59,567 bases of DNA from Psammoneis japonica. Its lineage: Eukaryota. Below the pieces are notes generated by a model. The model searched no databases. It was given only the letters and a program-made list of their open reading frames with translations, and was not told where the DNA came from. Positions 24,139 to 49,600 of the stretch are shown here, one piece after another; position 1 is the first letter of the stretch; the number at the start of each line of letters is the position of its first letter. The DNA lies in contig QPGO01000042.1 in the NCBI GenBank assembly GCA_008632985.1, positions 496,001-555,567 on the forward strand, read 5' to 3'. Made by a program: the position numbers and the translations under genes.

Positions 24139-24383
24139 TGACAGGATTTGAACAAGATTTTAGTTTGTCACACATGATCATGTGTGCTCTTAGTTCCACG
24201 TGCTTCATGCAATGCAGTTTGCTTTTGAGCCACACAGCTCACAAGAATGACAACAGTGGTGCAGACATCACAACACCAGTCTTTCGGCTCCTGCAACGGT
24301 CTCTGCAAGGAGACTCATCTGCCATTTGGACAGCAGCAAGGAGCTGTTGTTTTCTTCCACCCAGTCATCTTCAATTTCTGTCA
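24139..24383 (+). repeat. Copia 5' LTR
   Basis: Direct repeat of 30775-31019; TG...CA ends. Confidence 0.95.
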
Positions 24384-25220
24384 GATTGACAGTCTCGCTC
24401 ATTGTCACCCATTGAGCATTCATCATGGTCATCGAGAAATTTTCAATGATGCGCGCCGTTGGCGTTGGAAGCATGTGTCCACCTTCTTCACTGCTGGACA
24501 CTGGATTAAATCTGTGCATTTGGATTCATCCAACACCTCCCATCGTTAGACACATTTCTTCAACGGACATTTGTTTGGTCAGGAATTCCCGAATTCTCAG
24601 ACATCCGACATTCCGGATTCCCCACAGCGGATTCTACCCTGGTTGGCAGACAGACCAATGCATCCGCTCGAGCCCACGCCACGCGCACACGATGTAAACC
24701 CTTGACTGTGGCCCTGCTCCACTCATGCCAAGTCCACCGCTTCGTATCTGCACCAGATTGCTGGTCTTCTACAGTCCTGCAAGGTCCACGAGGACAACTG
24801 TGAGAGAAAGCAGTTTGTGATTGCAGCCTGCTTTGGGGCAAGGGTGCACATTTCCCGTGTTTGTTCATCCATCCACAGCGCCAAATTTGGCCGGCCTGAT
24901 CGGGCTGTCCAACCGACATAAAATGAGAACGGTTTGGAGGTCTTGTCCACCTCCAGTCAGCTTGTCAGCAGGGGTTTTTAACCCGTTGCTCCGCTCTCAA
25001 GCAACCCAAAGCGTCGCCAGCTGCAGGTTCAGACTTGCCGGCACAACTCTGCGGACCGGACAGGAAGCTTGGCACTTGACTACAAACAGGACATCACAGC
25101 CCGGTGGCTTCTGACTCATGAGACAGTTTGAGACTTCAAGTCAAGACTCAAGCCAAGTTTCAAGCCATTTCAAGCTCACCCTCTGACTCTAGCCAGTCCC
25201 GACACTCACCCAGTTACAAC

Positions 25221-28200
25221 ATGGTTCTCACCAGGCAGCAACAAATCAATGGCCTCGAGCACATCCCAGGCACTGTTCTGAATCAAGCCGCAGACAGTCC
25301 ATTGCGCTCTGCCCTCAACATTGATGGAACCGATTTGCATCAGGGCCTCTTTCCTTTTACTCCGATGCAACTGGATGCCCTTGTTTATGACGATGGCACC
25401 AATCAAATGCCCTTGCCACGTGGTTACAAAGCACAGATGGCTGCGCTGATTAGCCTGTGCATGGCAAAAGCACGCGGTGGCGCTGATGTTGGCAACAACC
25501 CTCAATTGTTCACACACAAGGAGTTCGCCGACTGTCGTCTCAGTCCTGAGCACGTGGCGTCCCTCTCCATGGGCAACAGCACCATCTGCTCCCACCCCTG
25601 GCTCGTCACCACCCAAACCACGTGACCCCGTGTGTGACTTTAAATGAGGCATCAAACGTGACCCACTCACCTTCGTGCTTCTCAAGTCTGACAAACAGTG
25701 GCACATGTGGCACACCTCCATTGTCGCACAGGCCTGCTCCCAGGACGTCAACCGCACTCTTGATCTGAAGCATGAGCCCTCCACAGCTGAGGACAAGGCC
25801 CTGTTCAACGAACAACAGAAGTGCATGTTTGCCATGTTTGAATGCATCCAGCAGAATGACAAAGGCAAGGCACTTGTTCATGAACATGTCGGCTCCTCTG
25901 ATGCTCAAGCGGTGTGTTGTGACCTGTCCAAGTGCGCCCTTGCTTCTGCTCGCACATCCCTGGAGTCCTCGACCCTTCTCATGCACCTCACCACTGCTTG
26001 CCTCAGTGATGGCACCTGGAAAGGATCCACTCATGCCTTCACACTTTGCTGGCAGGACCAGCTTTGCAAGTGTGAAGCTCTTGTCCCCGGTGCGGACCAT
26101 TTCTCAGCTGGCCAGAAACGTGTCATGCTTGAGAATGCTGTTCACCCCATCAAAGAACTCCGTTCAGCAAAGAATCAGGCCGACCAGTTTCGCACGCAGA
26201 ATGGCATGGGCCTTTCTTACGAGCAGTGCTGTGGACTTGTGCTTTCCACAGTGGCACAGTGCAACAACACATTTGCCCCCAAGATGGCTCCTTGCGCTCC
26301 GTGCCGTGCCATCTACAAACATGGCCTGGTCCCTGACGACCCTGATGACGACGTGTTCTTCGACATCGACAGTGATGTTGATGTCATCCAAGCTCATGCT
26401 GCGCAAACTCGCGGGCACTCCCTCACCAGGGAACAATGGCGTTGCATTCCGCCAGACCATCAGCACATTTGGGATGCTTTGCCCCAGTCCATCAAGGCCA
26501 TCATTCTTGGCTTGCGCGCCGCTCACACCGGCAACTGCCATGACTTGACGGCAGTCAACCTGCACGGACTCTGCATTGGTGGCGATGGCGATGTCAACTT
26601 GTCTGCCAACGCTCACAATCTTGCGTCAGCCTCCGCACAATCCGACGCTGTAGCCGATGCAGCCAATGCTAACCCCATTCTGGCTCATCTCACCAGGCGC
26701 AAGCCTCTGCCACCTGGCAACTTACAACGTCTCCTGGCACCTGAACGGCCTCCTTCCACCCATTCTGGAGAGAAATCCCCCGGATCTGCACCTTCCATCT
26801 GCTCTGGCATGAAGCCCAATGACACTGACATTGAGATCAACGGTCACAAATGCCATCGTGTCAACAACCACAATGTTGTCCACTCTGCCTTGACCCAAAA
26901 AATCGACTCGCAAAGGTGCCCTCGTGGATCGTGGTGCAAACGGTGGTGTCGCTGGTGATGATGTTCGTGTCATTGCTTGCACTGGTTGCAAGGTTGACGT
27001 CCAAGGCATCGACGATCACCAACTGGTTGACATTCCCATCGTCACTGTCGGTGGTGTCATCCACACACAACGTGGCCCCATCATTGCCATTCTTCATCAG
27101 TGCACCCACACTGGAAAGGGCAAGACCATGCGTTCTTGTGGTCAACTCGAGTGGTGCAAACACGATGTCAACGATCGGTCCATCAAGGTCCCCAATGGTC
27201 TGCAGCACATCACCACCATTGACGGATGTGTCATCCCCATTGACATCAAAGGCAGCCTTCCGCACATCGCCATGCACCCGCACACTGATGCCGAATGGGA
27301 CACCTTCCCTCACGTCATCCTCACTGGTGATGACACTTGGGACCCATCTGTCCTCAACCACCAGCTCACCGACGATGGGACGTGGTGTGATGCCGCATCT
27401 GACCTCCAGGTCGACCCAACCACCAACCTCTTTGACAAGTTCGGCAACTGTCACCACTGTCATGTCGTCAACAACACCATGCTTGCAGACTCCGTCCTCA
27501 ATGACCACCTGCTCCCAACATCCGATTTCTTCTGCGAATGCCATGAGCGCAAGATCAATCCAAAGGATCCTGACTTTGAGTCTCTGCGCCCTTGTTTTGG
27601 CTTTCTTCCGAAGGACACTGTCCGCCGCACTTTTGATTGCATGACGCAATGCGCTCGCATGCCCGCCAGCACACACTTGAAAAAGGCGCACCGACGCAAT
27701 GAACCTGTTGCCACTGACATGGTGTGCTCTGACACCCCCGCCGTTGACTCCGGCTGCACCAGTGCCCAGCTCTTTGTTGGCACCGAATCCCTTGTCACGG
27801 ACGTGTGCAGAACCAAGACTGACAAGGAATTCATCAACACGCTTGAGGACAACATTCGCAATGGCGGTGCCCCGTCCAAGCTCATCAGTGACCGTGCTCA
27901 AGTTGAGATCAGCAACAAAGCTCTTGGCATGCTTCGTGCCCTCTTCATCTCCAGTTGGCAAAGCGAGCCTCACCAACAGCATCAGAATTTTGCTGAACGT
28001 TGCTGCCAAACTTGAAGACCATGGCCAACACCATCATGGATCACTTCGGATCTCCAGCTTGCACCTGGCTGCTCACCCTGATGCACGTGTGCTTCATGCT
28101 CAACCACACGGCATCTGCCAAGCTCCACTGGTGCACCCCCACCGAAGTGCTGTCCGGCTCTGCTCCTGACATCAGCCCGCTCCTCCATTTTCAATGGTGG

Positions 28201-30787
28201 GAACCCATGTGCTGTCACCTGGATGATTCCAACTGGCCGTCCGAATCCCGTGAATTACGTGGTCGCTTTGTTGGCATTGCCAAACACGTGGGCCACCAAA
28301 TGACATTCAAGATTCTTTTTGATGACACTCAGAAGATTCTCTGCCATTCCAACGTGCATTCCACCCGTGATCCGTCTGCCCCAAACCTGCATCTTGATCC
28401 TCCTGATGAGAGATCTGCTGCACCCATCATTAAATCCCAGCATGACTCCAAGGCTTTGCCGGATTCACCAGATGGGGAGGCGATCAGGATGCCCAAAATG
28501 CCGGTCTTTGACCCTGAAGATGTCATCAGATGCACCTTCCTCATGAAGCCACAAGAGGATGGACAATGCCACAGAGCCCGCATCGTCAAAGCCGTTGAGG
28601 ACCATGACTGGAAAATCAGAGACAATCCTGAACCAGTCAAGTTCATTTGCTCCATCAACAATGACAAATGCAAGGAAGTCCCAGCCTGCAATGACATCAT
28701 GCACCACATCAAGCAAGAAGATGAGGACACTGCCCTCTGGAAGTTCCGATGCATTGTGTCACACAAAGGACCATTGCAACCCCATGATCCCTCTTGGAAA
28801 GGCTCAAGCTGCAATGTCATGCTTGAGTGGGAGAATGGAGAGGTCACATCCGAACCCCTTGCCATCATTGCCAAGGACAATCCCGTCACCTGTGCCATCC
28901 ACACACATGAGCATGGCCTCCTTGAAACTGAAGGATGGAGGCATTTTCGCAAGACAGCCCTGCATCAGAAGAAGCTGTTCCGCATGGCCAACCAAGCCAA
29001 GCCATGCTCCTTTCACACTGCGCCACAATGCAAGTGCGGGTGTGAAGTGCCACGAGACTGCAAGCATGCCTTGGCCCTGATGAGCACAATGGCAACCACA
29101 AGTGGGGAGACGCAATGGACCTCAAGATGACTCAGCTTGATGAGTGCGAGGTCTTCCACGACTGTGGACATTGCAAAGATTCCAGCACCCCACTGGGACA
29201 CAAAAAGATCTGGGCGCATCTTGTCTGTGACGTCAAACATGACGGATGGCACAAAGCAAGGCTTGTTGCCGATGGACACCTCACGGACGTGCCCGTCGAC
29301 AGTGTCTGTTCCGGAGCAGTGTCTCTTGCGGCCTGCGAATGATGATCTTCCCAGCCGAACTCAATGAACTGGAGACTTGTGCCACCGACATTGGGAACAC
29401 CCATCTCGAAGCTGCCACCAAGGAGAAACTGCACATCGCAGCAGAGGCCCCGAATTTGGCAAGCTAGAAGGACACATCCTTGTCATCCACAAGGCCTTGC
29501 ACGGACTCTGCAGCTCTGGCCTCAGATGGCATGAATGCTTTGCCGATTGCCTGCATGCTGAAGGCTTCTTCCTGTGCAAAGCCAAACCCGACATCTGGCT
29601 GCGCAGGAATGGTGACCACTGCGAACACGTGGCAGTGCATGTGGACAACCTGGCCTTCACCATGAAGGACCCCCAGGCTTCGCAGACACCCTCATGGAGA
29701 AACACAAGCTCAAGCTCAAAGGCACTGGACCATTGGAGTTCCATCTTGGTTGCGATTTCACCCACAATCCAGATGGCACCCTGTGCCTTGCTCCCCGCAA
29801 GTGCATTGAGTGCATGGTTGACAACTGCGTGCGCCTTTTTGGGGAGAAGCCCCGCACTGATGTGCTTTCACCCCTTGACAAGGGCGACCACCCTGAGCTT
29901 GACACTTCTGGATTGCTCGAACCCGATGGCATCCACCAACTTCAATCCTCAATTGGTTCCCTGCAATGGGCCGCATCCCTTGGTTGCATTGACATCACTG
30001 CGGCTGTCATGTCTCTGTCTGGCTTCCGTGCAGCACCCCGCCAGGGCCACCTAGACTGTGCCAAATGTGTCCGCGGATTCCTCTCCAAGATGTGTCATGG
30101 TGCCCTCCAAGTGCGCACTGAGGAGCCCAACTGTTCAGACCTTCCTGAGCCCGTGCATGACTGGGCCCAGTCTGTGTGTGGGGAGGCAGAAGAGCTGCTC
30201 CCGCAAGATGCGCCTGAGCCACTTGGCAAGTTCATCACCACAACGCACTGCATCGATGTGAACTTGTTCCATTGCATGCTCACTGGATGCTCTGTCACCG
30301 GCATTCTCCATTTCCTCAACAAGTTTCCGGCTGATTGGTTCTCTGAGAAACAAGCCACAGTCAAGACTGCAATGCATGGATCCAAGTTTGTCACCGCAAG
30401 GACGTGCGTTGAGCAGATCATTGACCTGCGCATCACTTTGCGTTGCCTTGGCATCCCCATTTGTGAAACCTGTCACATGTTTGCCGGGACAACAAGTTGG
30501 TTGTGGACAGTGCCACCATCCCGCACTCCAAGTCACACAAGCAACACACCACCCTCTCATTCCATCATGTGTGTGAGGCAATCGCCTCCAGTTTTCTTGA
30601 GTTTCATTTCATCAAAGGGTCCCGCAAACCGGCTGACATCCTCAGCAAGCATTGGGGTTGCTCCCAAATCTGGAACCTCCTTCATCCTCTGATGTTTTGG
30701 AACTTCGATCCCGAGGCTTTCAACCAATCCGACTTCGAATCTGTCACTGTTGACCCCTCAAGCAAACTGGGGAGTGACAGGATTTGA
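25221..30787 (+). pseudogene. Copia gag-pol, frameshifted, Tyr-depleted
   Basis: PR 'DRGANGG'; IN 'VATDMVCSD', 'LISDRA', 'QNFAER'; RT 'HKARLVADGH', 'KALHGL', 'VHVDNL' (YVDD position); RH 'PADILSKHW'. Confidence 0.9.
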
Positions 30788-31019
30788 ACAAGACCCCAGT
30801 TTGTCACACACAATTATGTGTGCTCTCAGTTCAGTGCTCGTCGCGAGATGCAGTTTGCTTTTGAGCCACATGGCTCACAAGAACAACAACAGCAGTGCCG
30901 ACATCATGACACCAGTCTTTCGGCTCCTGCAATGGTCTCTGCATGGAGACTCATCTGCCATTTAGACAGCAGCAAGGAGCCATTGTTTTCTTCCACCCAG
31001 TCATCTTCAATTTCTGTCA
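30775..31019 (+). repeat. Copia 3' LTR
   Basis: Direct repeat of 24139-24383, followed by TSD AAACC. Confidence 0.95.
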
Positions 31020-33923
31020 AAACCCCCTGAGTTTCATTTTGCATGGCCGGCTTTCTTCAAAGCTGCAGTGTGAGCCTTGCACACCCCCAGCAACAACCAG
31101 AATGTTGATTGCTCTGTCTCACTTCAATGTTTGCTTGTGAGATTTGTTGCCTGCAATGCACATGTCAGTGGAGTGTGTTGTTTCTGTGGGGTCTTTGATG
31201 ACAGGTGAGAGAAAAACAAAAGAAACAAGGGCACTTGGCCGACAAATGCCACAGACAAGTGCGCCATGGACATGAGCACCACGGTGCCCTCTGCCAAAAG
31301 GCTGCTGGACAAGGCAACCCAGCAAGCAGATGAGTGGATCCATCATTCACAGAAATGATGAAAAATGTGTGTGCAACACCTGGCTGGGGTTGATGGTGAT
31401 GACAGCTGTCCATGTGCTGCAATTGCTGGGGCAACAGCAGCAATCTCCTTGTGCTTGGGCACCAGTGTGTCATGACATTTCATGGCCATTCAAGAGAGGA
31501 GTTTTGATGCTTTGATCTTGTGTCAGCTCCAGACAGTCTGGAGCTTCTTGAAGTCAATGATCAACATCTGCCATCTGCTGGCAATCTTTCAAGAAGTTTG
31601 GTGGCCACACATTGTCCCAGATTTGTGGAGCTTGTTCCAGGTGTGCCATGATTGCACACCAGACAAAAGCAGAGCCCATGGTCCTGGGAAGATGATGGCA
31701 GCTGATGCATTCTGTGGAATGACTGCTGGTTTTCTAGATGTGACAGTTGAGTTGCTGGTCTCTGGCTTTGCTTTCCCACCTGACTCAAAACTCAGCAAAA
31801 ATGTTCACAAGGACTTGCGCACTGTGGAACTGTGCAAAACACACTTCTGCAACCCTGCAAAGCACCATGATGAGTGCTGTCATTGCAACAGCAAAACAGC
31901 AAAGTTCTGCAGTCTGGCAAAACAATCAAGCTTTCAAATGAAAGGACAACACAGCAGTCATCTGCTGGGTTGGTCAATCCATGAATGTGTGAGGAAATTT
32001 TAGAGCAAGAGAAAGGGGCACTTGAGGCAACAAGTGCACCACAGCTGCTGCATCACTTGAAAGAGGAGATCAATGACACAGTCAGCATTTTGCTGCCAAA
32101 GAACAAGGGAGTGGAGAAGTGCACCATTGCCAAGATGATGATCCCATGTGGTGGAAATGCAGCCCGTGTCACATGAAGAAGAAATGAAGTGCTCAGCACA
32201 AGGCTTCCAAGACCTTTTCCCTTGCATTTCCCAGCCATGTCATGCACACAATTGAAGCAAGAAGACCAGTGGATTGTTCAAAAGAACTGAGACAGAAGCA
32301 CCAAAGCAACAGCAAAGAATCAATTCTTCAAATCTCGGGTGGCAAACTGAGCAACAGATTCATTTTGGACCCATGGAGCCACGAGCCACCACTTCATGCC
32401 ATCTGTTGCTTGCAGGACAGAAAGCTGCTGCATGTTCTGGTCAAAAACAATCAGCATCCACAGTGGCTGACTCTGGTGCCAAACAAAATGTGCATGGATC
32501 TGGGTTGGCATGGTCATCAACAGCCACATCTGATGCTGTTGGAGACTTCTTTTGACAAGGACAAACACAACCTTTGTCAAGTCACGGGCATTGTTGCATC
32601 ACTCTTCATGGGCTCACATGTTTGCAGGGTTTGCTGCAGCACTTTTGCTTGGGTGAAGTCTGCCTTTTGCAGAGAAGCCATCAATGATTGGCCTTTTCAC
32701 ATGACTCCAACCATCTTCAAGATGACCCAAAGCAAGAGCAACAAGTGATGTTTTGCAGGTGCATGTTGCACCAAGTGACCAGAACCACAGAGGAGGGGAG
32801 GGGGGTAGAAACTTTCAACAAAACATGACTTGGGTGCCTTTCAAAACATCCATGAGATCTGTTGAACCACAACAAAGCATGAGAAAATGCTCAATGAAGC
32901 TTGCTTTTGCAGGGATCATGCCACAGCCAAAGACCTGCTCAGAACACTGCAAGAGTCTCAGAGAGTGCTGGCAGTGTGTTGGCACTGGTTGTTGCAATGA
33001 CAGCACTGGGCATTGCAGCAACACAACCATTTACACTGGTTGTTGTGTCAACAGCATTTTTGTCAGCCATTGCAATGACAGCAATGATGCTGGCTGTTGT
33101 GACAATGGCATTTGCACTGGACATTGCAACAATGAAATTTGTGTCAGCTGCTGCACAACAGCGGCATTTGCACTGGCTGTTGTGACAGCAGCAGCTGTTG
33201 TGGTGACAGCTTTTGTGCTGGCTCTTGTGACTGCAGCACTCATGTTGGTCATTGCAGCAGCAGTGTTTGAACTGGCTGTTGCACCCACAGCATTGGTGTC
33301 AGCCATTGCAGCAAGCCAACAGCATTTGCAGTGGATGTTGTTGACCTGGGTGCTCCTCTTTCTGGCAAGCAGATTGTTCAACTTCTTTGACATTGTCCCA
33401 AAGATGAGTGTGACCTCTTCAGTTCAACAGACCTTCATGTCTGTTGCACCACAACATTGGATGTCACCATGACAGGGCCACTTTCTTGATTGGACTTTGC
33501 CGCTTTTGTCAATGAACAATGATGTCTGTCCACAAGCCAGCGGGCCGCTGGAGAATGAAAAGTCTGCACCAGGTCTGCCACTCAAAAAAAAAATCAAAGG
33601 CACAAGACCAAGCTAGAGGGTTGGTGCTGGTGAGTCAAAATGATGTGTTGTCATCTTCACACTCCACTCACCATCTTGTCAAAGACATGGAGATGTGTGG
33701 CAGTCATGTCCACTTCTTCTGCTGATTGCCTCAATCTTGGCTTTGTCTTCTTTTTGGAGATCATTGGCTCAATTCCCAACACCCACCCATGCTGCAACAC
33801 ATTGTTCATTGTGAATGCTTTGTCATCCAGAGTTGTGCAATGAACAGCACATTGCCCAAAAGCTTGCTCATCTTTGTGACATGATCTGAAATTTTCACAG
33901 AGTGCCCATCATTGCAATGGATC
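31020..33923. mobile_element. Old degenerate element (host of the Copia and Gypsy insertions), family unassigned
   Basis: Nearly devoid of both TpA and CpG; TSDs show it was contiguous with ~23.2-24.1 kb and with 38.57 kb onward. Confidence 0.45.
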
Positions 33924-34290
33924 TGCAGCATGCGACTCTTGTGTACACACATGTGATTACATGTTATTTGTGTGTCAATCGTGCCACAGTCGTGGATGCG
34001 TGCGAAGGACAGAACGATCACACAGAGTTGGTCGGAAGTCGAAAATCGCAAATACGATCGATAGACGATGCTGACATCTCACGTGTCAAAAGCAATCGTA
34101 TTCGGACTATCTGTTGTCACGATTATATTCTCCGAAAGGCCTTTTGTCTGTAGAAGCAGTACAGAAGCTTTAGGCCATTGAGAACTCATTCGGAGAAACC
34201 AAAAATCACAGAGTAAAATCTAATCTCATAATTTCCACTTTTCGTACACTATTCTACTTTCGTTTACACTCGTTCTTCGAGCATAGTGCA
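33924..34290 (+). repeat. Gypsy 5' LTR
   Basis: Direct repeat of 38194-38562. Confidence 0.93.
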
Positions 34291-37200
34291 TTGTGTATAC
34301 ACACCACAGAAGGTAAAAAGCACGGAAAATGAAAATTTCAACTAATGTGCCTTTGCAAATTCTTCCACAAACAGGAACGAATCGCATCAGTTCTGCTGGA
34401 ATCGATTTCCGAGCGGAAGAAGCTCAAGCCGAGCAGCACCTCAAGATGGAACGCTGTTTTTCATCTACCAAACAAGAGGATTCGCTCTAATACGGTCTAT
34501 TCCAAGCACCCAAGGATCAAGGGCTCTCAAGTGCACCGCATTGTCAAAAAATCTACACCAAGTCATGGTTGCAGAGAATGCAAGTTCCGAGTCGATCAGA
34601 TCCGAGAAATGCGTCTACCATGCAAGGAGAGACTATTGGAGAGTTTTTTGAGACCGAATCGATGATCCTCGAGTCCAAGGAGCAAGAGGGAATCGTTGGA
34701 AAGTACCTCAAGCGTCTCGTGACTCATGTCCTCCGAGGAAATGCACTTCAGAATCAGGGAAATTATTTTCGAGACGACCTGAAGAAACCAGAGCCGCTCA
34801 ACAGCAAAAAAAGCCTCTGACAGACCCAAGAGGTCAACGATGAGAGTCCACACGACCCTCAGATGGATTCTAAGTCGAATCTAGCTGGAAACCGAGCGCT
34901 GATTTATCAGCTGTCACTCGCACCGCAAGGATGGCAGCATCAGCCTGCTGTCCAAAATGTTGAACTGCTGGATCATGCCCTTGACGAGCTGATTGAGGTT
35001 TGAGTCGTCCAGAGGTCGGCAAGGACGTCTGTGACAAAAAAAACATGTCAATTCGGGCTCTGATGGCGCAGTTGATTCCACAATCAAAAAGGCTCCAATT
35101 TTGGTTCCAAAAATGGTCTCCCACATGGTGCCACCACAATCCAAAGTGAGTGAAAGGTCCAATCTTTGAAAAAAGAATGCCTGCATCACGGATTAAAGCC
35201 ACTCTGAAAATGAACCAGTGAAAGAGTGCAAGGGTGGCTCTAAAAGAGACCCAAAAATACGACGCTCTAAATGGCAATCGCACGCGAACGTGACGAGAGC
35301 AGAAATGCCTCTGTGAAAGAGGAGCTGAACTGAACTGTGAACCAGGCAGTTCACAAAAAACAACCAAAGCGAGTTCCTCGACAAAGGAACGTAAAAATAA
35401 GAGTGAAAATTAAGACTCTAAAACGCTTGACGAACAAAACTGTCAATTTAGAAAAATTGACCCGATCGAGTCCGATCAAAAATTTGCACCGCTCAAGGAG
35501 CACAACGCGTCACAGGACGTCTGGAAACCCAGAAAAAGCATCACAGCATGTTGTGCGAGTCCTGTTCTCGCTGTCTATGTGACTGCTTCTCTGAGAAAAG
35601 CAAAAAATAAGCTTCTGCGTGTTCTCTCGATAAAGAACATCGTCAGCCCATGATTTTACGCAAAATCGTGCAAAGTTGAGAACCAAGATGTCGGCCACCA
35701 AAAAACTTGGGAAACCAAGGGTGAGCTCTTTACGACTGATGGCAAACACCGAATTCAGTTCTCAGTGCGCGAATTTAAGACTTGCTGATGTTCAAACAGC
35801 ACATGTCAATGACACCAAATGCCCTTCAAGGTCGAATGATGTGATCATGGGACGCGACTTAATGTCCAGTTTTGCAATCACACTAGACTGCGCAATTGAA
35901 GAAATCAAATGGGAATGAAGCAATTGCCCCATGAAGAATGTTGATGCACTCTTCGACACAGAAATGTTCCAGCTGAATGCCGATCACATTGAAAAATGTC
36001 ACGCGGTGAGTGGAGTTAATGACGAGACCGATGGTTCTCGACTCACATTGTCACGCCGTCGATTCTAATCAAGTGACAGCTGCAGCAATGCATCTTAACC
36101 AAAAGAAGATAAACCACTCAGTCTCCTTCTTAAGAGGTTTGAAATCCTTTTGAAAAGTTCCTTGGACACATGAATTGAAAGAACCAATGGATCTCGCCGT
36201 GAAAAAATCTGACGCGATTCCACGACGTGTGAGAACCTTCTCCCATCACAGTCTTTGGAGGCATTCATTTGAAAGGAATTTAACCAATTGTGAAAGATTG
36301 AAGTTTTAAAAATGAAATTGCGATTCAATCATGGAACACCACGATGTAAAATCAAAAAGCACACGTCGTGCTCACATCATGATAATGCCGTGGGGGAAAA
36401 TGAGTGCTGCAGACTTCCGACAAGAATCTACAGAGCCCCGTACATTTTCATGCAACGCATGAGCGAACTCATGGCAGGTTTGGAGTTGTCAGAACGACTG
36501 AGAATGAACATTTGCACCTGACAGAAAACAACTTCAAAATGTCACCTGTGCAAGAAAAACTTGAAACGGCATTCACACGACTGGAACAGTCGCTTTGAAG
36601 GTTGACAAACAAAAGTCCTTCACTGCTCAACTTGAAAAAAATTATCAAGACTTCCATGCGCAACGGCACACATCCGATTACAAAGAAAATGGAGGCGATT
36701 CCGGCAATCGCAACACTGAGCAAAACGCAAAGAAAATTACGACAGCTTGTCGATGCATGTTGCCACCACAAAGACATGTAGTCTCAATGATCTCCTGTGC
36801 ATTTCTAGCCAAATCCACCTCAATGAAGGTCAAACGGCAAAAGGACAAGCACAGAACGAAAAGTCTCCGAAAATGTGGAGCGCATCACATCAAAAACTGT
36901 GTCATTGTCAAACATGGCATTGCAATGTTCAAGTCACAACGGAAAAAGAACTTCTGTCCACAGTGGAAACACTTGATGATTCCCGGAACATGCTGTTTGG
37001 CCAACAGATTGTCACACGTGCGGTTCATAACACACAATGGACAGAGTCATGCGTTGATGACTTAGAGCGCAGAATTCCAGTCCCGAAATAAAACACATCG
37101 AGGGCAAGGCGAACGTCGTTGCAAGAGCGATCAGCCGACTCACTGTAAAAAAAATAGAACCTGTGGAAAACCTCAGCACAGAAGAGTTGGCTGAAAAGGT

Positions 37201-38193
37201 CCCACCAAAATCCTGCGACAATGTCTTTCCATTAAATTGCAAAGTTCTCGATGCTGAACAAAATGGGGGTGAAGACATTTCCTCCAAATTGTCGGACGCG
37301 ACACATCATACGAACACTTTTCGTGGAGGCGAGCGAGATCAAAAATGCTCATGTCATGAGGAAAAAATCGCCTTGTTTGGGGACGGTTGAAGAAAAAATC
37401 AGTGACAGATTGGCACACATTGTGCGCACCCACTTCACATTGGCAAAAGACAATCTCACAGCACCCGCACGACTGCAATGTACGATGTACGAGGCAAGAC
37501 ATAAATGACGTCACACGAGATGTGCCAAAGATTCAGAAACAAAACACAAAAATGGACATTCATCCGAACAGTGCACAAAAGCAGTGCCTTTGGAATGACG
37601 AAACATCACCGGCATGTCAAAAAGAAACGTCCAAATGACGATCAAAATCCAAAGGAAAGATGGTTGAAGTGACAAAGAAATCCATAAAGGAATCCACAAC
37701 CATCCCAGGATTGTCAAGACGAAATGGTTAGAAAATGCCCTTGACCATCGTCAATTGCTTGCGACACGTGGAAGTGCAGCAGAGCAACATGGCACATGTG
37801 AAGTTAGCCAGCCAGAACTGCATGAACTCCACAAGTAAAGTGAACGCCATGACAATTAAAAGAGCGTGCATTGAGCACTGGGCATGATGCCAGGTACAAT
37901 CGATGTCATGAAAAACACTGCAGGACAATTGGTCCTTGTGCTCATGTCAACAAAGAACGTCAACGAGAACACTCGACGCAACGCCACATGTGCACACATG
38001 CAAAGTGAGAAACAAACGATGTCACTCTCACAAGACATTCGGAAATTGGAACGGCCCCACATGGCCCACACAAAACGACAACAGTCATTGCCAATGGCAC
38101 AATGCAGTGAACGTGGAGACATCATTGACACTGTCAACATCCATCGAATGATCCACTTAACAAATGACTCCAATGTGCAATTAGGGAGGCGAG

Positions 38194-38562
38194 TGCAGCA
38201 TGCGACTCTTGTGCACACATGTGTGATCATGTGTGTCATTCATGTGTCAATCGTGCCACAGTTGTGGATGCGTGCGAAGGACAGAACGATCACACAGAGT
38301 TGATCGGAAGTCGAAAATCGCAAATACGATCGACAGACGATGCTGACATCTCACGTGTCAAAAGCAATCGTGCTCGGACCATCTGTTGTCACGATTGCAT
38401 TCTCCGAAAGGCCTTTTGTCTGTAGAAGCAGTGCAGAAGCTTTAGGCCATTGAGAACTCATTCGGAGAAACCAAAAATCACAGAGTAAAATCTAATCTCA
38501 TAATTTCCACTTTTCGTGCACTGTTCCACTTTCGTTTGCACTCGTTCTTCGAGCACAGTGCA
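38194..38562 (+). repeat. Gypsy 3' LTR
   Basis: Direct repeat of 33924-34290, preceded by PPT and followed by GATC. Confidence 0.93.
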
Positions 38563-41500
38563 GATCCATCTTGATCACAGCCAATGGGGTCTGTGTCCAC
38601 AAGCATTTTTGTTGCATCATGACCTCTGCAGTCACTGTGCATGCTTGAGTGAGCTTTGCTCACTCTCTCAGTCAGTCATTGTCCGTGTCCAAGAATGCTC
38701 TGGTCTTGCATCAAGAAGCAAGAAGACAAGGGCGTGTCCACAAGCCTGCACAAACTGTCCAGGGAAAACCCACAGGCAGGTTCCTTCAATTCCAAGTTTT
38801 GTGGTGCAGACAGAGCAGATCAAGTGTTCAGTCTTCTAGTCAAAATGGCTCTTGCTTCAGGTTTGGCAGGGAGCTTGGCCTTGTCATCACTTGTGCCTTC
38901 TTCTCTGAGCTGTTCTTTGGCAAGCACCCTGCTGCAACAACAAAATTCAACACACAGCCCATCACCATGGTTGCAATCACCTCCCTCCCTTTGTGCCATC
39001 ATCCCAGCTCAGAGCACAAAAAGCCAGGCCTCATTTGACTCAGAGTTGAGAAGCAAGATGTGTGTGCATCTGTGCTGCCTTTTTGAAAGTCAACCACTTG
39101 GGGCAAGGTTGTTGCAAGTCAAAGGACAATCATCATTTGAGGTGGGAGCAGCCACCAACTCATTTTCCAACCCAAGCATTTTCTCTTTGCACTGGTTGAG
39201 CTCCAATTTGCATTGCTTCAGTTTCTTTTGAAGCTGGTCTGCGCTGTTCTCAATCTCCTTCTTCTCATCCTCCTGGTTTGCAAGTGCAGGGTTGCTGCTG
39301 AGATTTGCAGTGATGTCGTCCTTCTCTTCAGACTCACTTCTGTTTCAGTGCTGCCATCTTGTGCACATTTTCTTTGCAACAGCTTGAGTTTCTGTCAATG
39401 CTGGCTGCATGAGCAAAAGAAGCTTTGGGACCATGAGCACTTTGCAGTTCAACTGTGCAGTGTGCCACAGGACCCATGACACAGCAAACCTGCTGCGCCT
39501 CACATGCATGGGTGCCACGCATCTGCTTTTCTGCTGGTTGCTTGGTCATTCCCAAGCAGGGTCAGAAAGTTCACATGCAATGAAGCTTGAAGGCAGGCAG
39601 CAGCTTGGCAGTGGAAAATCATCCCACCACACAAAGCAGTTGCCACCACCACAGCGCCCCTTCTCAGGGTCAGTCTCATTTGTCACCCACTCTTTTGTCT
39701 TTGAGTTGTGCACCCTTTTGTCTGGTTTAAAATGCCAAGGAGCCAGCCACAGCCCCATGTGCAGCTCATTTTGAAGCTTGTCCTTTGCCACATCTGAGAG
39801 GTTGCCACCCACAGCATTTGCAATCTTGGGCAAAATTTCATTTTGTTGAGGTGTCCTTGTGTTGGTTTGGACAGAGGCCAATCATCAAGCAGCTGTCATT
39901 GCAGCAACAGCAACTCTGTTTGCAACCAAGTTCTTCATTGTGAAGAAATGGAGACATGTGGAGACCCTGCCCTTGACAGCTGCTTTCTTGGCACATTTTT
40001 GGGAAACGTCCTTTGATGGTGGAAAGTGCAGAAGTGGCTGGAGTTGTGATGCACAGGAGGGCAGTTTCATCTGGTGATGGAGCATTTTTCCTTGCCAATC
40101 AGCTCAGCAAAGTGCAAGCCAAGTGACACCTCCCAGGAACTTGGACACTTCCTCGACACTTTGAAAAATGCAAACAAAAACATGGCAAGGTCAGCAGTGC
40201 AAGCCAGGGTGTCACCATCATTGGCTGCTTTCTTTGGTGCATTGTGTGCTGCAAAGAAGCCAAAGGATCTCTCCAATGGTCAGCAGCAAAAGTGCCCAGT
40301 GCCAAAGCACACAGAGCAGTGCTGCAGGCCATTTCTGGTGTGCTGGGCATTGGCCAAGCAAGGGGTGGAGCCCCACCAGCTGACAGAGCTTCCTCAACAA
40401 AAGCTGTTGGCAGCTTTTGCATGGAGTGCATCATTCACACACCAAGTGCCCCACAGAAAGAAAGCTGTGAGGCTGGCATGGGATCAAACCACACACCAGT
40501 GTGGCAGCACACACACACCAACAGCAGCAGCCACAAGGGCCAGTGCTGAGGAGTGGCAAGCGCCTTTCTTGCTTCTTGCATGAGTCTTTTCTTCTTGTTC
40601 TTTGACAATCATTTTTCTTCCATGAGAAAAGCAGCTGTTGTGCATCTCATTTTTGCAGCTGCTGCATGTGCAAATTTTCTGGCATGACATGCCATCCTGT
40701 TGCATGCACTTGATGTGCTGCCCCCTCCCTTGCCCAGCTTGTGCGGGACACCAGTGTGATTTTTACAAACAAAAAAGTCCTGGCCAAATTTTGACTGAGT
40801 CAAGAAGCTCATTGTTTAAAAATCACACCAGCATGGGACAATTTTTCCCAACAAGCAGGCACGTGCTGCAACAATTTGATGCCCCACCTCAACTGGAACA
40901 GCCACAAGCAAGAATGATCATCCAGTGCAAATGCTTGCCTGGGTCAACATGTCCCATCATGCCCCAGCTGGCAAATCCAGCAGAGTCCAGCCACTGGCTT
41001 TTGCAACATTTTGTTTGACAGACCTCTTTGGCAACTTTTTGCAGCTGGCATGCATTGCACAGACCCACACTGTTTTTGTTCCATGAGCTCTGCACACACA
41101 GGGGGGCATCACACAGTGGCCAGTGGGGGGTGCTGCTGATGTGCATCAGCCACACAGAAGTTTGAACAATGCACTGCAGCCAAGTGCACAAACAGTCTTT
41201 TTGTTGCTCTCATTGTGTTCGTGCAGATGATGGATTTTCTGCACCTGCCTTTGCACCATCTGTTGGCAAACAGCAGGCTCTTGCTCCTTTGGGCAACTTT
41301 GTCCTCACCTTCTTTTTGATTGTTGTGGTCAATGCACATGTGATTTTGTTGGCCTTGGTGGGCCACCCTTTGCAGCATGCCTTGTCTCCCTTTTTTCTTT
41401 TTCTTGGGTGCTTCTCCACTCTTTTCTTTGCTGTGCAATGAGACAAGAGCTTGAGGTTCTTCACGCTCTCTGTGCCTTTGTGTTGGTGAGGTGCAGCTCA

Positions 41501-44500
41501 ACCCAGGTTTCCATTGGGCTCATCTTCAGCTCTTTCTTGCATCTCAACTGCACTGGGTGGCTTCATTCTGTTTGCATTGCTGCTGTTTTGAAGCTCCTGC
41601 TTAAATGCAGCTGATTTGGCTGCCTGTTGATGTCATTGTGCCAGCTGATTGCTTGCATTTTGCTCACTCTGGTGCCCGCCCTTTGTCTTTCTAGGATTTC
41701 TCCTGCAACAGCTGCAGCACAAACCTGGCGCCAATGGCAGTGCTCTTCTTCTTGCGTGTCATCTCCATGTCATCCAGCAGGGTCATTTTGCAAAAGTTTG
41801 TCTTGCTGCCCTTCACCAACACATTGTTGCAGTCTGTGTGAGAAGGGCACAAGCTTTGTTGTCTTCAGCACTTTTGTTGTTCTTTTGCTTTGGCGCAGTC
41901 AATGACAACAAACAGCAACAGGATCTGACAAGGCTGCCCCAAACAACAGGACAGCGGGCTCACTCCTGTGAGAGGAAAACTTGGTCCTTGTTCACCAGCC
42001 AAAGTTCTTGCAGAGGAGCAACACTCACACACTTGAAAGTGCCCCTGTGCACAAGAAGACAGCCCCAGAGGTGTGGCACAGCTGCCAGTTTGTTGCTGGA
42101 GAAAAATCAAGTGGAGGACACAAGGAAGAAAAGAGACAATCCCGCTCTTGTTTGTGGCGTGGCACAGAATGCCCTGACAGCAGCTTTGTGCACAAAATGT
42201 GAAGTTGACACAGGTCAAACAGAGAAGAAGTTCTAAGTGAAAGTGAACATGGGGAATGAGAGTGCACTTGCACAGAAGATGGCACCATCATGGTTGCATG
42301 CAAATTGGTGCAAAAACTGGTGAAAACCACAGAGAGGTGTGTGACAAGTCATTTGTGGCAAGGGCATGTTCTGTGCTAAAAGAGCACACTGCCAGCCATG
42401 CTGCCCAGAATGGCTGCCCCAGAGAAAAACAAAAAGAGTGCAGCTCAGTTGTCCAACTCATGGCTGTGAACACAAAGAGAGAGCAGCAAGTCACCAGCAG
42501 CACTGACTTCATTCAATGTGTCAACAAACAACTTTTGATTGCGCAAAACATTGTTGCCCACATTCTTGTGCCAAAAAGATCTCCAAAGCTGAGACCACAC
42601 ACACTGAAAGTGATGGCACACAAATGGGCAAAGTCACTGAAGCTGTCTGCATTTGGGGAAAAATGCAAAAGTTCAACAAGAAAATTGTGCCAAATTGCAC
42701 ATGAGAGGATGCTGCTGCAGCAGCATGTGTCATGGCAATGCCTCTCAGCACATCTCAGCAACACTGCCAAAGGAGCAGCACTGGAGCAGCCAAAGGCTGG
42801 ACAAAGTCACACAGGAGGAAGGTGCTTCATTTTGAGCCAGGGGTCAGAAATGCACACATGTGGGCTGATGCAAGGAGAGGCTGCTGTGCCCACAAAGTGC
42901 CAGCAGCAGCATCTGAGGGGATCTTCTTCTTGTTGCTGTGGGACTGCAATCTCAGGAGAAGCCAGGGGCAGCATGAAGATCAGCACAGCACTTGCAATTG
43001 GGGTGCCAGCAAGCCAGCCAGCCAACCAATGCTGGTGTGTGGTGGTGCACAGAGGCCAAATCACAAACATCAGCACCACTTTTTCAAGAATGCAAAGATG
43101 TGTGTGTGTGTGTGTGCATGTGTTTGAGGTGCATTGCTCTGTGTTTGTGTTGACTAGGTTCTCTTTGGCTCTGCACTTGCATGCTGACTTGCAAATCCCA
43201 TTGTGGCAGGCACACCAATGCAGTGCTGCTTGTCAGCATCAACTCACAAATTCCTTCACAAAAAGAACCTTTTGCAGCTGGGCTGCCCCCTCATGCAATG
43301 AAGCCCTGGCAGCACTCCCCCCCAAACTCACCTGTTGGGTTGTCAGTGTCATCTGGCTCTGGCCGCACACAGCTTGCATGCCACTTTGACTTGACAACCT
43401 CTTTTTCAAGTTCTCACCCCTGAGCTCATCTTGCATCAAGAGAAAATGCTCTCTCTGCCATCAACAAACACCCAACACCCCCACCCCCCAGCTTTCCTGA
43501 CATTGTCCTGGTGCACCCACCATGCCACTTGGCACACCCAGCCAAAAATGCACCAGGTGGCAGCACACTGATCAGCAAGCAATGTTGACAAATGAAGCAT
43601 TTTTTTTCATTTGCAAACTGTCAAAATGCACAGCTGCCTTTTTGCACAACAGTTTCCAAGTCACAACAAGCCAGACAACACCTTGCCATCTCCTGTGTTG
43701 TTGTTGTCAATGATGAGGATGTGTGCTGTTGCAAGTCCACAACTGCCACCCAGCAGACTTGTGGGGTCCTTCATTTGCAGAAAGCTGTGCCACATTGTTC
43801 ACAGAGAAAAGCCCAGGTTTGCAACCATTTTGTTGGTTTGAAAACAGTGGTGCACACAGACTTGTTGTTTGCAACAAATCTGTTCTGTTTCTTTGTTTGG
43901 AAAGTCTGGCATCATGTTGGTCTGTTGAATGCAGGCATTGCAGAGGCAGAGTCACATCATTGGGGGTTGTGGACAGGCAATGATTTTTCAACAATGGCAA
44001 GAATGTGCCAGAACAACTTGCAAATTTGAAGGCATTTGTCATCATCGAGAAACACAGAAAGAACTTGACTGTGAGGGGCACACAGCAGAAATTTTGCACC
44101 ACTGCAGATCTCTTTCAGGCAACGTGGTGTTGCCACTCAAAAAAGCTCCCACTGACTGTGGCAAATGGCAGGCCAAACTTTTGCAGGAGAGAAAGTTGAA
44201 AAACCTTTCCTGTGTGCATTTGCCCCATGGGTTGCCTTCAAGGTGGGGGGCTGGACTCTTGTTGGCTGTTGTGATGAGCTGTGCATGTTGTGCATTGAAG
44301 AAAAGTCTCGCCAAAGGTGCCCCAGTGGTTTTGTGCCAACTCCACCAAACATGGCAGCTTTGTTTGGCATGCCAGTGACAAAAAAAAACTCCAGCCACTG
44401 CGTGTCTCATTTTGGCCAGTGTGCTCCACTTCTTTGAGCAAGAAGAGACTTGCAGCCACTGTGGAGCCCTTTTGGCCTCTCTGCACTTGGCAGGGAGATC

Positions 44501-45340
44501 TTTTGTTTTGTTTGCTGGGCTTTGTTTTGCACTGTTCACATGGGTGGTGCATGATCAGCACACCCAACACACCTGGCCTTCAACCTTTCCTTCCCCATCC
44601 TTCCAGTGCACATGCCACCAAAGGGTCAGGACTCAGATGTCTTCTTCCTGTGTTCTGCTGCAGCTGCACTCTGGTGCTGCCATGGCCAGCCTTGGACAGA
44701 AAGTTGTCGACAATGTCAATGACTTCATCAAACTCTGAGCCAATGGTCAGCTTGGTTTCATCACAAGCATGCACACAGAGGATTTGAACTTGGCTCAGGT
44801 TTTCAAGGGCACTTGGCGCAAAACAAATTTTGCAAAAGCACGTGTTGCTTGCCTTTTCAAGTGCTTTGTTGCACACTTGTTGACGCCAATGATTTCCAGT
44901 CCATGGCCAGTGCAGGATGTGGCCTCAGAAGAGGAGAGAGAGAGTGAGCCAAAAGCCAGATGGCCCAAAGGTGCCACACATTTTTTCCCTTCTCCCCCCT
45001 TTTGAGAGAGCGGCGAGTCCTCGTCTGCTCCTCCAGAGCCAGAGAGAGTTTGGGCCAACTGGTCAATTTGCCACACACAAGGGAGAGCACCAAGACTTGG
45101 CACTTTTGTTCTTCCTGTGAGCAGCAGAAAACAAGAGCACCATTCTTCCTCGAATCACCCCTCACTCAAAGCCAACTTTGATCTCTGCTGGGGGTCACTC
45201 AACGCCCCTCTGGAGTGGCTCATTTTTTTCTCAATGCTTTGGCAGCTGCATGACAGCACAACTCATGGCATTTTCCTGCACAAACTGGGTTGTCATTTGT
45301 TTTTCACTGAGCAAGGGTTCAAAGAGCCTGATCAGAAGAA
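38563..45340. mobile_element. Old degenerate repeat-derived sequence, unassigned
   Basis: Extreme TpA and CpG depletion, TG/CA saturation, coding-like remnants with no recognisable domain. Confidence 0.4.
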
Positions 45341-46603: not shown

Positions 46604-49600
46604 CTACACCAACATTTCTGCGCACTGTTGCTGAGAAAAATGCGTGGCGCTTCTCTCCTTCATGAGTCTCATCAAGGCTTCGTAACCTTCTGGGACCTTG
46701 CATTTTCGCAGGTCCTTGCTCAGTGGCTTTCGCATGAACAGCCCTTCTCTGGTCTTTACTCTGGAGAGCACAACACACACCCAATTCTGAGTGCAGCTCC
46801 AAGAGTGTACAAACAACTGCGGGACTCCACTCCCTTGCAGTTTGTGCCCTGCAGTGGCATTGTTGATGACAAACGGCAGCTGGGTTGCCTTCAGTTGGAA
46901 AGTGTGCCTTTGTTTGTCGCCTTCTTCTAAAATTAGGCTGGGCTTGGTGATGCAAGCCCTGAAAGCATTTGTTTTTGGCTCAACTAAAAACTTCGCGGGG
47001 TCGATGCTTTTGTTGCAGTGTTCCAATGCAACGTGGTCTACCTGACTGGCAAGTGCAGCAGGAATGCCAATGTTGTTGTCTAAAGTCACTGGTCTTGGTT
47101 CCTGTCCTGGTTTGAAAACAACCTTGTCAACAGTGGCTTGCGTTCCGTTTGCTTGACTGTTTGCTGCATTTTCGTTGAAAGGTGTCATGACTCTGCATCT
47201 TCTGTAAATTCGCAAGACTGGATCCATTCTTCCTGATTGCATGACAACGTCTCCTTCACCACAGTTGTTCCAGAAGCTGTTGCAAACCGGAAATGGTTGG
47301 CAGAGTCTCGTGCCATTCTGCACCTGCAAGTCGTCACTGAAAATCAACATTGAGTCAAGGACGTCTCCATCTCTTCTGTGCAGTGTTTCTACTCTTTTTT
47401 CGAATGGGCCAGTGTCAATTGCATCTCTGTCCTTATTTGCGCACGTGGCATGGTGGAGGTCACTGGGCAGATCATCTTCATTCTGAACTGCTCGTTCGTT
47501 GATGTGCTCCACATCGTCAACTGCAATCTCACCAGTGCGGAATCTCTTGAGCAGTTTTCCCCATGATGGATCGTCTTTAAACCTGTGCACACCACGAAGT
47601 TCTGTGCAGCAGTTGATCCACTCGTGAAACTCGGGACATGCATCTTTGTGCAGTGCTTTCACTCCTTTTCCGACTGGTTCTAGTTGCCTGAGGTCACCTG
47701 CGAAAACAATGTTCATGCCACCATGCGGCTTGCTCAATTCGCTCTTCAATGCTGTCAAATTCTCATGGAGTTTTTCTAGTTCTCTCTTGCTTGCAAAAGA
47801 AATCTCGTCTGCCACCAAAAGTCTTGTGTCTGACCATGCTTCAATTTGCTCTTCGGTTGTTTGCTTTCTTCTCATGAGGCATGCAACTCGGTGGATTGTG
47901 TCCCCTTTGAGAATGGTGGCAGCCACTCCGGTCAGTGCAGTCACTCTGATTGTGCTTGTTGTGAACGGCTGCTCAACAAGCGAGCAATGCTCTCTTCCGC
48001 ATTCCATGACGAGGTCCATTGTGGTTGATTTGCCACTTCCACCTGCACCATGCAAAAAACACACAAGTTGCAACGTTCTGCATCTTTGCATTTCCACGAG
48101 TTTCTTCAATCGGCAAAGGTTTGTTGCGAATTCATGTCTGCCATTTCTCCTGTTAAGTCCATTGCGTGACGTCTCGTCTTGAAGAGCGTCTTGGCAGCAA
48201 GTGAGCACAAAGGTTCCTGCTAGAATTTCAAAGGCACGCTGCTGTTGCCTGTCCAGTCTTGCTTTCCTGGCCCAGTCTACGACACTCACTGCAGATCCGT
48301 TTGCTTGACGCACATCGACGTGTTCTTCCAAACCTGTCACATCCTCAAACGACCTTCTTGTTCTTTGCGTTCCAGTCAGCATCACTCGAACAATGTCATC
48401 TCTTGACAGTGGTCTGCTGTGGATGTGTTGTTGCACTCCTTCATTCTGGTCTTCCTCGTCGGTGTCATTGCCGCCCTCTAGATTCTCAAAAAGTTGTCGT
48501 TCATTGACCTGGCTTTCCTCGTTTGGTGGGTCAGTGTGCATGTCTGCCAAGCATTTGCAACCACCCATGTGTGAACCTTTCTGTCTTGCACGTTTGCCAC
48601 TCAAATGCGCAGGAATGACTGCTTGGTCGCTCAACCCAATGTCATCGTCTTCTGGCTGCTCTGCCATTTCTTCCAAGAGTGCATCCAGTGGTTGACCCTG
48701 AATGGCGCCTGAAAGACCTTCTTCCTCGTCACTTTCGCAACAGTCAAACGCAACGTCAGCAGGTCTAAATTGCTCCGTCTTTCTTTGCAGATCGTCAGAT
48801 GTGCTTTTGAGATGAAGGCAGTTGGACTCAGCATCCTGTGGGTTCTGCAAGAAGTTCAAGTTTTCCTCTGCAATGACACCTGCTACCACGGAGAGTTGGA
48901 ATTCACGCAGGTGTGTGTGGGTTGTTGGTTTGAGTTCCGTCATTGTTCTGCAAGGCGCAAACAAGGCCAATGCCAACTTGCAGCACAATTCTTTGTCCAG
49001 CGTTGTTGGTTGCTGCGGATCCACAAGGCAACTGCCAAACTTGGCTGCATCAGGAAAATCATGCTGAAGTGCTTTTGGCAATCGCGGTTGCTGTCGCTGT
49101 CTGACACCTTGAAGAAACTCATTCTTCGTTGAATTGCAAGACGGGTGCCTGTGCGCTCTGTTGTCGAACATCATCATGCCGTGTTCGTTTTTCCTTGTGT
49201 TGCGAAGAACTTCGCATTCACTGAAAAACGCAAACGGACTGAGATTCTCCAGTGCTGTTGGACGACACAGGCAGTGCAAGGCCTGGCATTGGAAGAACGG
49301 TGCATCGCCAAAACAGGCTACAGTCGCAGACACTTCGTCTCTTTCTAGTGTGCTGACAATGTCTTTCAAGGGGCACCATGCGGTCAAATGAGATTCGATG
49401 AAACGGCTTCCATTCCTTGTCATGTGAGACGCAAGTGGTGGTCCAATGACGTTCGTCATGCGAGCAAGCACCCCATGTGAGACGTCTGATTGCTTCTGAT
49501 GCATCAGATGCGTGTTTCCGTAATTCCGTCGCTGTCCTGTTCGCAGTTCGAAGCACTTCGTCGTACGATGCAGTGTCATCTTTCTGGGTGTCTTTTAGGA

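Follow-up and report, generated by a model that had tools for sequence, protein, structure and literature searches.

We analyzed a 59,567-nucleotide stretch of the Psammoneis japonica assembly (contig QPGO01000042.1, positions 496,001 to 555,567 of the forward strand; this whole stretch is the window, and positions below are counted from its first letter) that carries a Ty3/Gypsy retrotransposon at 33924-38562. The two long terminal repeats (LTRs) of this element differ mainly in that one has lost the dinucleotide TpA (TA), to TG or CA, at sites where the other retains it, and TA is strongly depleted throughout the transposon block in which the element lies. We conclude, with a probability of about 0.9, that a mutational process converting TpA to TpG or CpA exists here. 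The data presented below establish its spectrum, its action on both strands, its confinement to the transposon block, its direction (from protein relatives), its independence of element class, and a rate that far exceeds both CpG decay and background.

The 5' LTR (33924-34290, forward strand, 367 bp, with TG...CA ends) contains 20 TA, an observed/expected ratio of 0.66 that equals the host-gene level, while the 3' LTR (38194-38562, forward strand, 369 bp) contains 6 TA (ratio, 0.22) and 21 CG. A preliminary description of this DNA had reported an LTR pair at these positions and had quoted eight 5'/3' contexts, all of which we found; between 34062 and 34284 we likewise counted exactly the 11 TA losses and the one other change (34101, T/C) that it had listed. 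Over the whole LTRs, 6 TA are shared, 14 are confined to the 5' LTR, and the 3' LTR has none of its own (sign test, p=1.2e-4). Of CG, the 5' LTR has 22 and the 3' LTR 21, with 21 shared. The fourteen TA losses comprise 7 changes to TG and 7 to CA, and these outcomes are interleaved (11 runs vs 8 expected) and thus do not form a single-strand tract. Because the alignment of the first 50 bp is ambiguous, owing to a 2-base indel and three TG/CA doublets, our statistics exclude that part of the LTR. In the gap-free part (33974-34290 vs 38246-38562, 317 bp), 11 of the 14 differences fall in the 34 TA bases, 1 in the 42 CG bases, and 2 in the 241 other bases (Fisher p=1.4e-9); counted by site, 11/17 TA changed vs 1/21 CG (p=1e-4). 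Both of the differences that are neither TA nor CpG are A:T/G:C transitions. The rate of TA loss was thus ~20-fold that of CpG per site (ratio, ~21, with one CpG event) and ~100-fold background per base (with 2 background events), and the raw LTR divergence of 4.4 percent falls to 1.1 percent outside TA. The summary offered by the preliminary description, that TA had gone to TG or CA while CpGs stayed intact, therefore holds for TA, which accounts for 11 of the 14 differences, but is too strong for CpG: one was lost (33991), and CpG decay is active in the genome. Its suggestion that the termini derive from TGTA and TACA gained no backing, as both LTRs and two other family copies start with TGCA. 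The data support the conclusion that the LTR differences arose after the LTRs were last identical, on both strands. The LTR pair of an older Copia element in the same window is saturated and symmetric, with 2 TA in each LTR and none shared.

The window divides into two parts. A host gene block (1-22400), which served as the untouched control, encodes an MFS transporter, a PHD protein, bL25, an ABC transporter, and MCM10, and has TA and CG at 0.66 and 0.99 of expectation (over 1-21900). The host is diatom-like by its atlas neighbors: Bacillariophyta are the commonest taxon in the cluster closest to the bL25 protein (score, 0.94) and in one cluster near an ORF at 56600 (score, 0.96), while exact look-up of eight host ORFs matched 0/8. 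Mobile DNA extends from ~22400 to the window end (59567); here, the TA ratio is 0.02 to 0.21, and the CA/TG ratio climbs from 1.11 up to 1.96. The border is sharp, with 3-8 TA per 100 bp up to 22400 and then five 100-bp bins with zero. In this one window, TA loss is confined to the transposon block and host genes are spared. Elements of different kinds are affected: the Copia element (24139-31019, forward strand), which we used for polarizing the change, has a TA ratio of 0.077, and Helitron-like open reading frames (ORFs) with DUF6570, Helitron_like_N, and PIF1 matches (46604-52242, reverse strand) contain 0.3 to 0.5 percent Tyr, compared with a range of 1.3 to 3.3 percent for six host ORFs, so an element class without a reverse-transcription step is also TA erased. 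Across 22400-59567, TAA falls from 8.6 to 2.8 per kb and TAG from 12.1 to 2.2 per kb, with TGA undepleted, and this three- to fivefold depletion opens numerous long frames that lack stops and abound in Cys and His.

The direction of change was read from protein relatives. For the Copia element, we used 119 relatives and required a column to cover 40 or more of them with an agreement of no less than 80 percent; a further protein, P0022, which has lost 10/10 conserved Tyr (one of 120 proteins to have done so), was excluded. At the 33 columns with conserved Tyr, the Copia element has Cys 19 times, His 9 times, Phe 3 times, and Leu and Tyr once each, so that 28/33 changed from Tyr to Cys or His (29/34 before the alignment ends were trimmed), and no conserved column showed the reverse change from Cys or His to Tyr. 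A-to-G changes were found in 19/33 TA codons, 1/48 AA codons, 1/38 CA codons, and 0/75 GA codons (TA vs AA, p=8e-9). In the Gypsy interior, where the alignment is noisier, 1/15 conserved Tyr is kept and 7 have become His or Cys. The one-directional replacement of Tyr by Cys and His indicates that loss of TA is the direction in this block and makes a gain of TA in the 5' LTR unlikely. Several observations nevertheless weigh against this reading. The polarity of the LTR sites themselves is indirect, resting on protein relatives and neighboring elements. A comparison with other copies of the Gypsy family covered 40 of 809 difference rows, in a contig stretch that excluded the 3' LTR, and among these rows no family letter matched either LTR at a differing TA site; the only such site covered, 34108, carries a third letter in the family. 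At 34214 and 37147, the window has TA where most of the family depth has CA or TG, and one Cys column of the Gypsy interior reads Tyr, at 36429. The loss of TA from the Gypsy interior may also predate this insertion, to judge from its advanced decay. The 40 rows otherwise comprise 4 with family TA and window TG or CA (the 2 reverse cases being those just named), 6 with family CG and window TG or CA, 4 of the reverse kind, 2 that make up one doublet, 11 other transitions, and 11 transversions, a mixed tally as expected for copies that lose sites independently.

Decay of CpG is supported as a separate, slower process that is also active here. The TA and CG ratios form a nested series, from 0.21/0.88 in the Gypsy interior and 0.077/0.54 in the Copia element to 0.02/0.08 in the flanks of the Gypsy element, which are old DNA (left, 31020-33923, TA 0.025 and CG 0.08; right, 38563-45000, TA 0.022 and CG 0.08). 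That TA loss is separable from CpG deamination, as the preliminary description had argued, is supported by the LTR site counts and by metagenomic relatives, some of which have lost CpG at ordinary TA and others TA with a milder loss of CpG. Among 80 metagenomic Copia loci, 4 are TA poor (L046, 0.01; L018, 0.02; L072, 0.09; L002, 0.27), and 76 lie at 0.44-0.89; several of the 76 have CG down to 0.03-0.2, and in the TA-erased loci the CpG loss is milder than the TA loss. All four TA-poor loci share a single contig-name series with 12 further loci that are normal. L018 and L046 are separated by 31 difference events, of which 13 are of CpG type, 1 of TA type, and 1 a doublet; since they differ mainly at CpG, they descend from a common, already erased ancestor and provide no independent test of TA loss. 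With the exception of this pair, the erased copies are 47 to 63 percent mutually identical. On a quick-search tree of 81/87 rows, from which Tyr and Arg columns had been removed, the six TA-erased copies need 5 changes, and 62/500 shuffles were as low; this scatter fits a property of the host and is also compatible with a single origin. Among Copia relatives with ordinary TA, L054, L066, L023, L038, and L053 have CpG at 0.03-0.14, and L023 keeps 153/155 conserved columns, so CpG avoidance there is old.

One of the TA-poor loci, L002, differs in what it has kept. It retains 9/10 conserved Tyr and 191/200 conserved columns, and its two ORFs in the Copia frame contain 19 Tyr, 1 xTA codon, and 5 NNT|A vs 132 NNC|A junctions. 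At these junctions, the fraction of T is 0.04 for the longest L002 ORF, compared with 0.20 or more in 61/64 loci with an ORF of at least 450 amino acids. Between 767 and 3514 of L002, TA of tyrosine codons is kept and synonymous TA is purged. This pattern suggests that L002 may represent a lineage that remained active in the presence of the mutator, TA being preserved by selection in only those places where it is needed.

The TA sites that survive in the mobile block are not a random sample of contexts. Relative to genes, survival was 0 for ATAT, 0.01 for ATAG, 0.02 for ATAC, 0.10 for GTAC, 0.24 for CTAG, 0.36 for CTAA, and 0.59 for TTAA, in a survey of 245 survivors in the mobile block vs 999 gene sites. 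Grouped by context, TA density relative to genes was 0.036 for YY, 0.133 for mixed, and 0.361 for RR (p=9e-23). The baseline of this test is host genes, against which resistance and renewal of a site are not separable. From the sequence contexts, the data suggest a target preference of TAT > TAC > TAG > TAA; an independent strand-choice test for a preference for TAY was not significant (pooled p=0.53) and gave it no support.

The 14:0 asymmetry between the LTRs, on which the preliminary description does not comment, calls for its own explanation. In the clean part, TA loss is at most ~16 percent in the 5' LTR (likelihood bound) vs 65 percent in the 3' LTR, and a TA-retaining zone that takes in most of the 5' LTR and the leader (33974-34700, forward strand) holds 28 TA in 727 bp vs 56 in the next 3493 bp (p=3e-4). 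The Copia leader is similarly enriched (9 TA in 777 bp vs 16 in 5614 bp, p=0.002), and the first 820 bp of L002 have TA at 0.66; however, AT-rich leaders start with more TA, so the LTR pair is the only controlled comparison. We consider it probable that promoter-like DNA is protected. An unlikely alternative accepts the mutational process as real and ascribes the asymmetry to the 5' LTR and leader having been reset, by gene conversion from a younger sibling, or joined in an assembly chimera, in which case the LTR pair would not date the insertion. The high copy number of the family, an interior decayed far beyond the 1.1 percent non-TA divergence of the LTRs, and a 5' LTR whose first 50 bp look mutated while the remainder does not would all fit a reset, and it counts against protection that no contig spans the element, so that the phase of the LTRs stands on the assembly. 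On the other side, the GATC target-site duplication matches at both ends, the LTRs share four letters (34071, 34102, 34214, and 34220) that are absent from 92-95 percent of the family depth, and a 5' excess of TA is seen again in the Copia leader and in L002, neither of which has an internal control.

In the mechanism that we propose, a host process would target integrated double-stranded transposon DNA over and over, turning A:T into G:C at the A of 5'-TA-3' in either strand. The reaction would be enzymatic deamination of adenine to hypoxanthine, which is read as G, by a putative TadA/ADAT2-type enzyme, and silent chromatin, not the retrotransposition cycle, would direct it to its targets. 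Promoter-like DNA, namely host upstream regions, the 5' LTR, and the leader, would escape, leaving the 14:0 asymmetry. The outcome would be killing by missense (Tyr to Cys or His, and others); stop codons could not arise in this way. The natural target of TadA has a U before the edited A. Adenine deamination is favored because the transition is pure and because it has been proposed for the chlorarachniophyte Bigelowiella natans, in which a similar process was described. We give this chemistry, chromatin-guided adenine deamination of genomic DNA, an even chance. The TadA/ADAT2-type assignment of the enzyme is putative, the ADAT2 homologue of B. natans with its proposed DNA-editing residues being likewise only a prediction (bioRxiv 10.64898/2026.01.13.699255), and in double-stranded data, A-to-G and T-to-C chemistry look alike; these points lower our confidence in the chemistry.

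The same process could instead act on thymine, with a TET/JBP-type dioxygenase oxidizing the T of TpA to hydroxymethyluracil or formyluracil, which would mispair with G and yield T-to-C changes. Formyluracil does miscode, and the double-stranded outcome would be the same as that of adenine deamination; the window even contains a TET/JBP-like 2-oxoglutarate dioxygenase ORF (56600-57511, forward strand, HxD motif at 57206), with an atlas score of 0.96 to a cluster in which 16 percent of members have PF12851 and to a cluster in which Bacillariophyta are commonest. This ORF, however, is cargo of the transposon block that is itself TA erased, and it has no Pfam match at E 10. We know of no TpA-specific thymine oxidase. 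Although hydroxymethyluracil is abundant in dinoflagellates (10.1101/2024.10.28.620566), we regard thymine oxidation as improbable. Somewhat less probable still is error-prone repair synthesis by a polymerase of the eta type, drawn to T:G mismatches that arise when methyl-CpG decays. Polymerase eta mutates A in WA motifs after mismatch repair (PMC4686820), CpG decay shares the same blocks, and both other LTR differences are also A:T/G:C transitions, but the signature of this polymerase includes AA as well as TA, plus A-to-C changes (PMC4686820). AA codons of the Copia element are kept in 44/48 columns, with 1 A-to-G change, and AA is undepleted in the old flanks, at 1.26; this sparing of AA disfavors polymerase eta, as does a TA loss far ahead of CpG loss. 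Of the TA columns, 3/33 read Phe.

Two further explanations are very improbable. In one, the 5' LTR would have gained its TA by CpA-to-TpA change resembling RIP (repeat-induced point mutation), whose signature is the change of TG/CA to TA, or the differences would be sequencing or polishing artefacts. The indirect polarity of the LTR sites and the 52 CA/TG sites present in the 3' LTR leave room for a gain, which would, however, leave the TA-free starting state without explanation and is at odds with a 5' LTR at the normal gene level (0.66) and with Tyr-to-Cys/His change in one direction only. An artefact is countered by independent metagenome loci with the same loss, in a contig-name series in which 12 loci are normal, and base-calling error is excluded by the codon-selective survival of TA in L002. 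The other explanation, equally improbable, holds that RNA or cDNA was edited in ADAR- or APOBEC-like fashion ahead of integration, or that N6-methyladenine was deaminated. ADAR favors U 5' of the edited A (bioRxiv 10.64898/2026.01.13.699255). RNA or cDNA editing is strand biased, though, and spares DNA transposons (PMC4866542), and it is excluded here by changes on both strands (7:7), unequal LTRs, and affected Helitron ORFs. N6-methyladenine is disfavored because in eukaryotes it lies at ApT near active starts, is unenriched in transposons, and is absent from Phaeodactylum (10.1101/2024.10.28.620566).

The TpA spectrum is already known from the B. natans preprint and is not new here. In that organism, two viral inserts together carried 231 mutations, 230 of which were A:T-to-G:C changes at TpA, at a rate of ~6e-7 per site per generation; the process has a ~1000-fold rate per generation and was active in some lines only (bioRxiv 10.64898/2026.01.13.699255). 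Our case resembles the one reported there in its A:T-to-G:C change at TpA, its TpG and CpA products, and its restriction to foreign or mobile DNA, and TA-poor coding sequences of B. natans are enriched in reverse transcriptase and DDE domains. It differs in that the B. natans host is a rhizarian with single-copy inserts derived from NCLDV (nucleocytoplasmic large DNA viruses) and from virophages at TA 0.45, whereas here the host is diatom-like and multi-copy Gypsy, Copia, and Helitron elements are reduced to as low as 0.02. The available text of the preprint contains neither 'diatom' nor 'LTR' nor 'context', and it reports nothing on LTR pairs, on escape of 5' regions, or on codon selection. 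In the open-licence PMC and bioRxiv literature, we found no report of TpA hypermutation in a diatom.

As in RIP of ascomycete fungi, dense transitions affect both strands of integrated repeats, are dinucleotide specific, and stop sharply at gene borders. RIP, in contrast, turns C:G into T:A, giving rise to TpA and to stop codons, while here TpA, TAA, and TAG are removed. RIP is triggered by duplication; the Gypsy family here is high copy, and of two LTRs that are 96 percent identical, one escaped. RIP also depends on homology, on the sexual cycle, in which it is premeiotic, and on RID/DIM-2. The authors of the B. natans preprint also liken their process to RIP (bioRxiv 10.64898/2026.01.13.699255). 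APOBEC editing of LTR retrotransposons is likewise a host-made hypermutation seen between element copies, but it acts on cDNA, gives sense-strand G-to-A changes, and spares DNA transposons (PMC4866542), unlike the post-integration A:T-to-G:C changes on both strands seen here, which include the Helitron. Deamination of methyl-CpG shares the TG/CA end products and the transposon blocks; it differs in its substrate, in being ~20-fold slower per site in the LTR pair, and in its decoupling from TA loss across metagenomic relatives.

The element itself has the hallmarks of Ty3/Gypsy retrotransposons, namely direct LTRs with TG...CA ends, a 4-bp target-site duplication (GATC at 33920-33923 and 38563-38566, forward strand), a polypurine tract seen in the sequence (38183-38193, forward strand), and the order gag, protease, reverse transcriptase, RNase H, as judged by tblastn with 120 intact relatives carrying PF00078, PF17917, or PF17921; it is unlike them in that its interior is decayed and frameshifted. 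All on the forward strand, we located a decayed gag-like segment at 34695-34997 (tblastn of P0160, E 0.001), a decayed, frameshifted protease region at 35513-36170 (tblastn of P0247, E 1e-9; phmmer, P0150-P0152, of which P0152 carries an RVP domain), a decayed reverse transcriptase with several frameshifts at 36337-36778 (tblastn, E 1e-7 to 1e-9), decayed RNase H and the following linker at 36852-37375 (tblastn, E 2e-15), and, at 37946-38150, a segment that weakly matches the C terminus of Gypsy pol, on the integrase side (tblastn, E 0.1 to 1.5). None of the three Gypsy frames had a meaningful Pfam match, and the decayed frame used directly as a homologue query returned 0 matches among 7990 candidates; relatives were reached through phmmer (3 matches) and then through P0150. 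Only 119/254 conserved columns of the interior are kept, with many frameshifts, and because the LTRs are only 1.1 percent different outside TA, most of this decay predates their last identity. The element most likely stems from a non-autonomous lineage whose copies were mobilized in trans.

The family is high copy, with 3395 matching contigs in run X1, 2 in X2, and 0 in X3. One X1 contig matches 33585-33923 perfectly and breaks off right where the element was inserted, which would be compatible with an empty allele; two flank positions, 33502 and 33547, read CA in place of the window's CG. No primer-binding site of tRNA type was recognized by eye after the 5' LTR, and no tRNA was found in the window. 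Directly after the 5' LTR lies a palindromic 12-mer (34291-34304) with a near-repeat 16 bases into the LTR (33939-33951), and self-priming could take the place of a tRNA primer. The RNA fold of the 5' LTR has a z score of -2.1, which is not informative.

Elsewhere in the mobile block, a 313-amino-acid ORF without tyrosine and without an assigned family starts at the gene/mobile border (22292-23233, forward strand), and degenerate tandem repeats lie in TA-free DNA at 33030-33310 and 52420-52973 (a 45-bp family and a 248-bp unit). A 339-amino-acid ORF (54767-55786, reverse strand) has only a chance-level Pfam match and presumably resembles an S-adenosylmethionine-dependent methyltransferase; around it, CG is fully retained and TA is down to about 0.18. 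A SET-like ORF (57734-58378, reverse strand; Pfam E 0.017) stands beside the TET/JBP-like ORF, which lies downstream of a Helitron, and the two are possibly chromatin-enzyme cargo of a mobile element.

What is new beyond the preprint is the diatom-like host, the near-saturation, the involvement of Gypsy, Copia, and Helitron elements, the escape of the 5' LTR and leader, and the erasure of 4/80 metagenomic Copia loci, one of which keeps its tyrosines. A process measured in one chlorarachniophyte is thereby extended to a diatom-like genome and to three transposon classes, and it is the dominant force on repeat sequence there. LTR pairs offer a built-in before/after assay, from which target rules, protection, and timing can be read in any assembly. 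Ages based on LTR identity, a dating used for diatoms (10.1101/2025.10.24.684338), would be inflated about fourfold in such hosts, given the divergence of 4.4 percent raw and 1.1 percent outside TA, and, with TAA and TAG depleted, long spurious ORFs rich in Cys and His arise that risk being miscalled as genes. If the chemistry is adenine deamination, a natural adenine editor of genomic DNA is indicated. It is conceivable, though we advance it only tentatively, that a chromatin-guided DNA adenine deaminase is a genome defense common to diatoms and rhizarians, which would rewrite TpA in all mobile classes to near completion and spare promoter-like DNA, including the elements' own 5' LTR and leader, and would have operated long enough for active lineages to adapt, retaining TA nowhere but in their tyrosine codons and 5' region, apparently the state of L002. 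Such a system would be a natural A-to-G editor of double-strand genomes.

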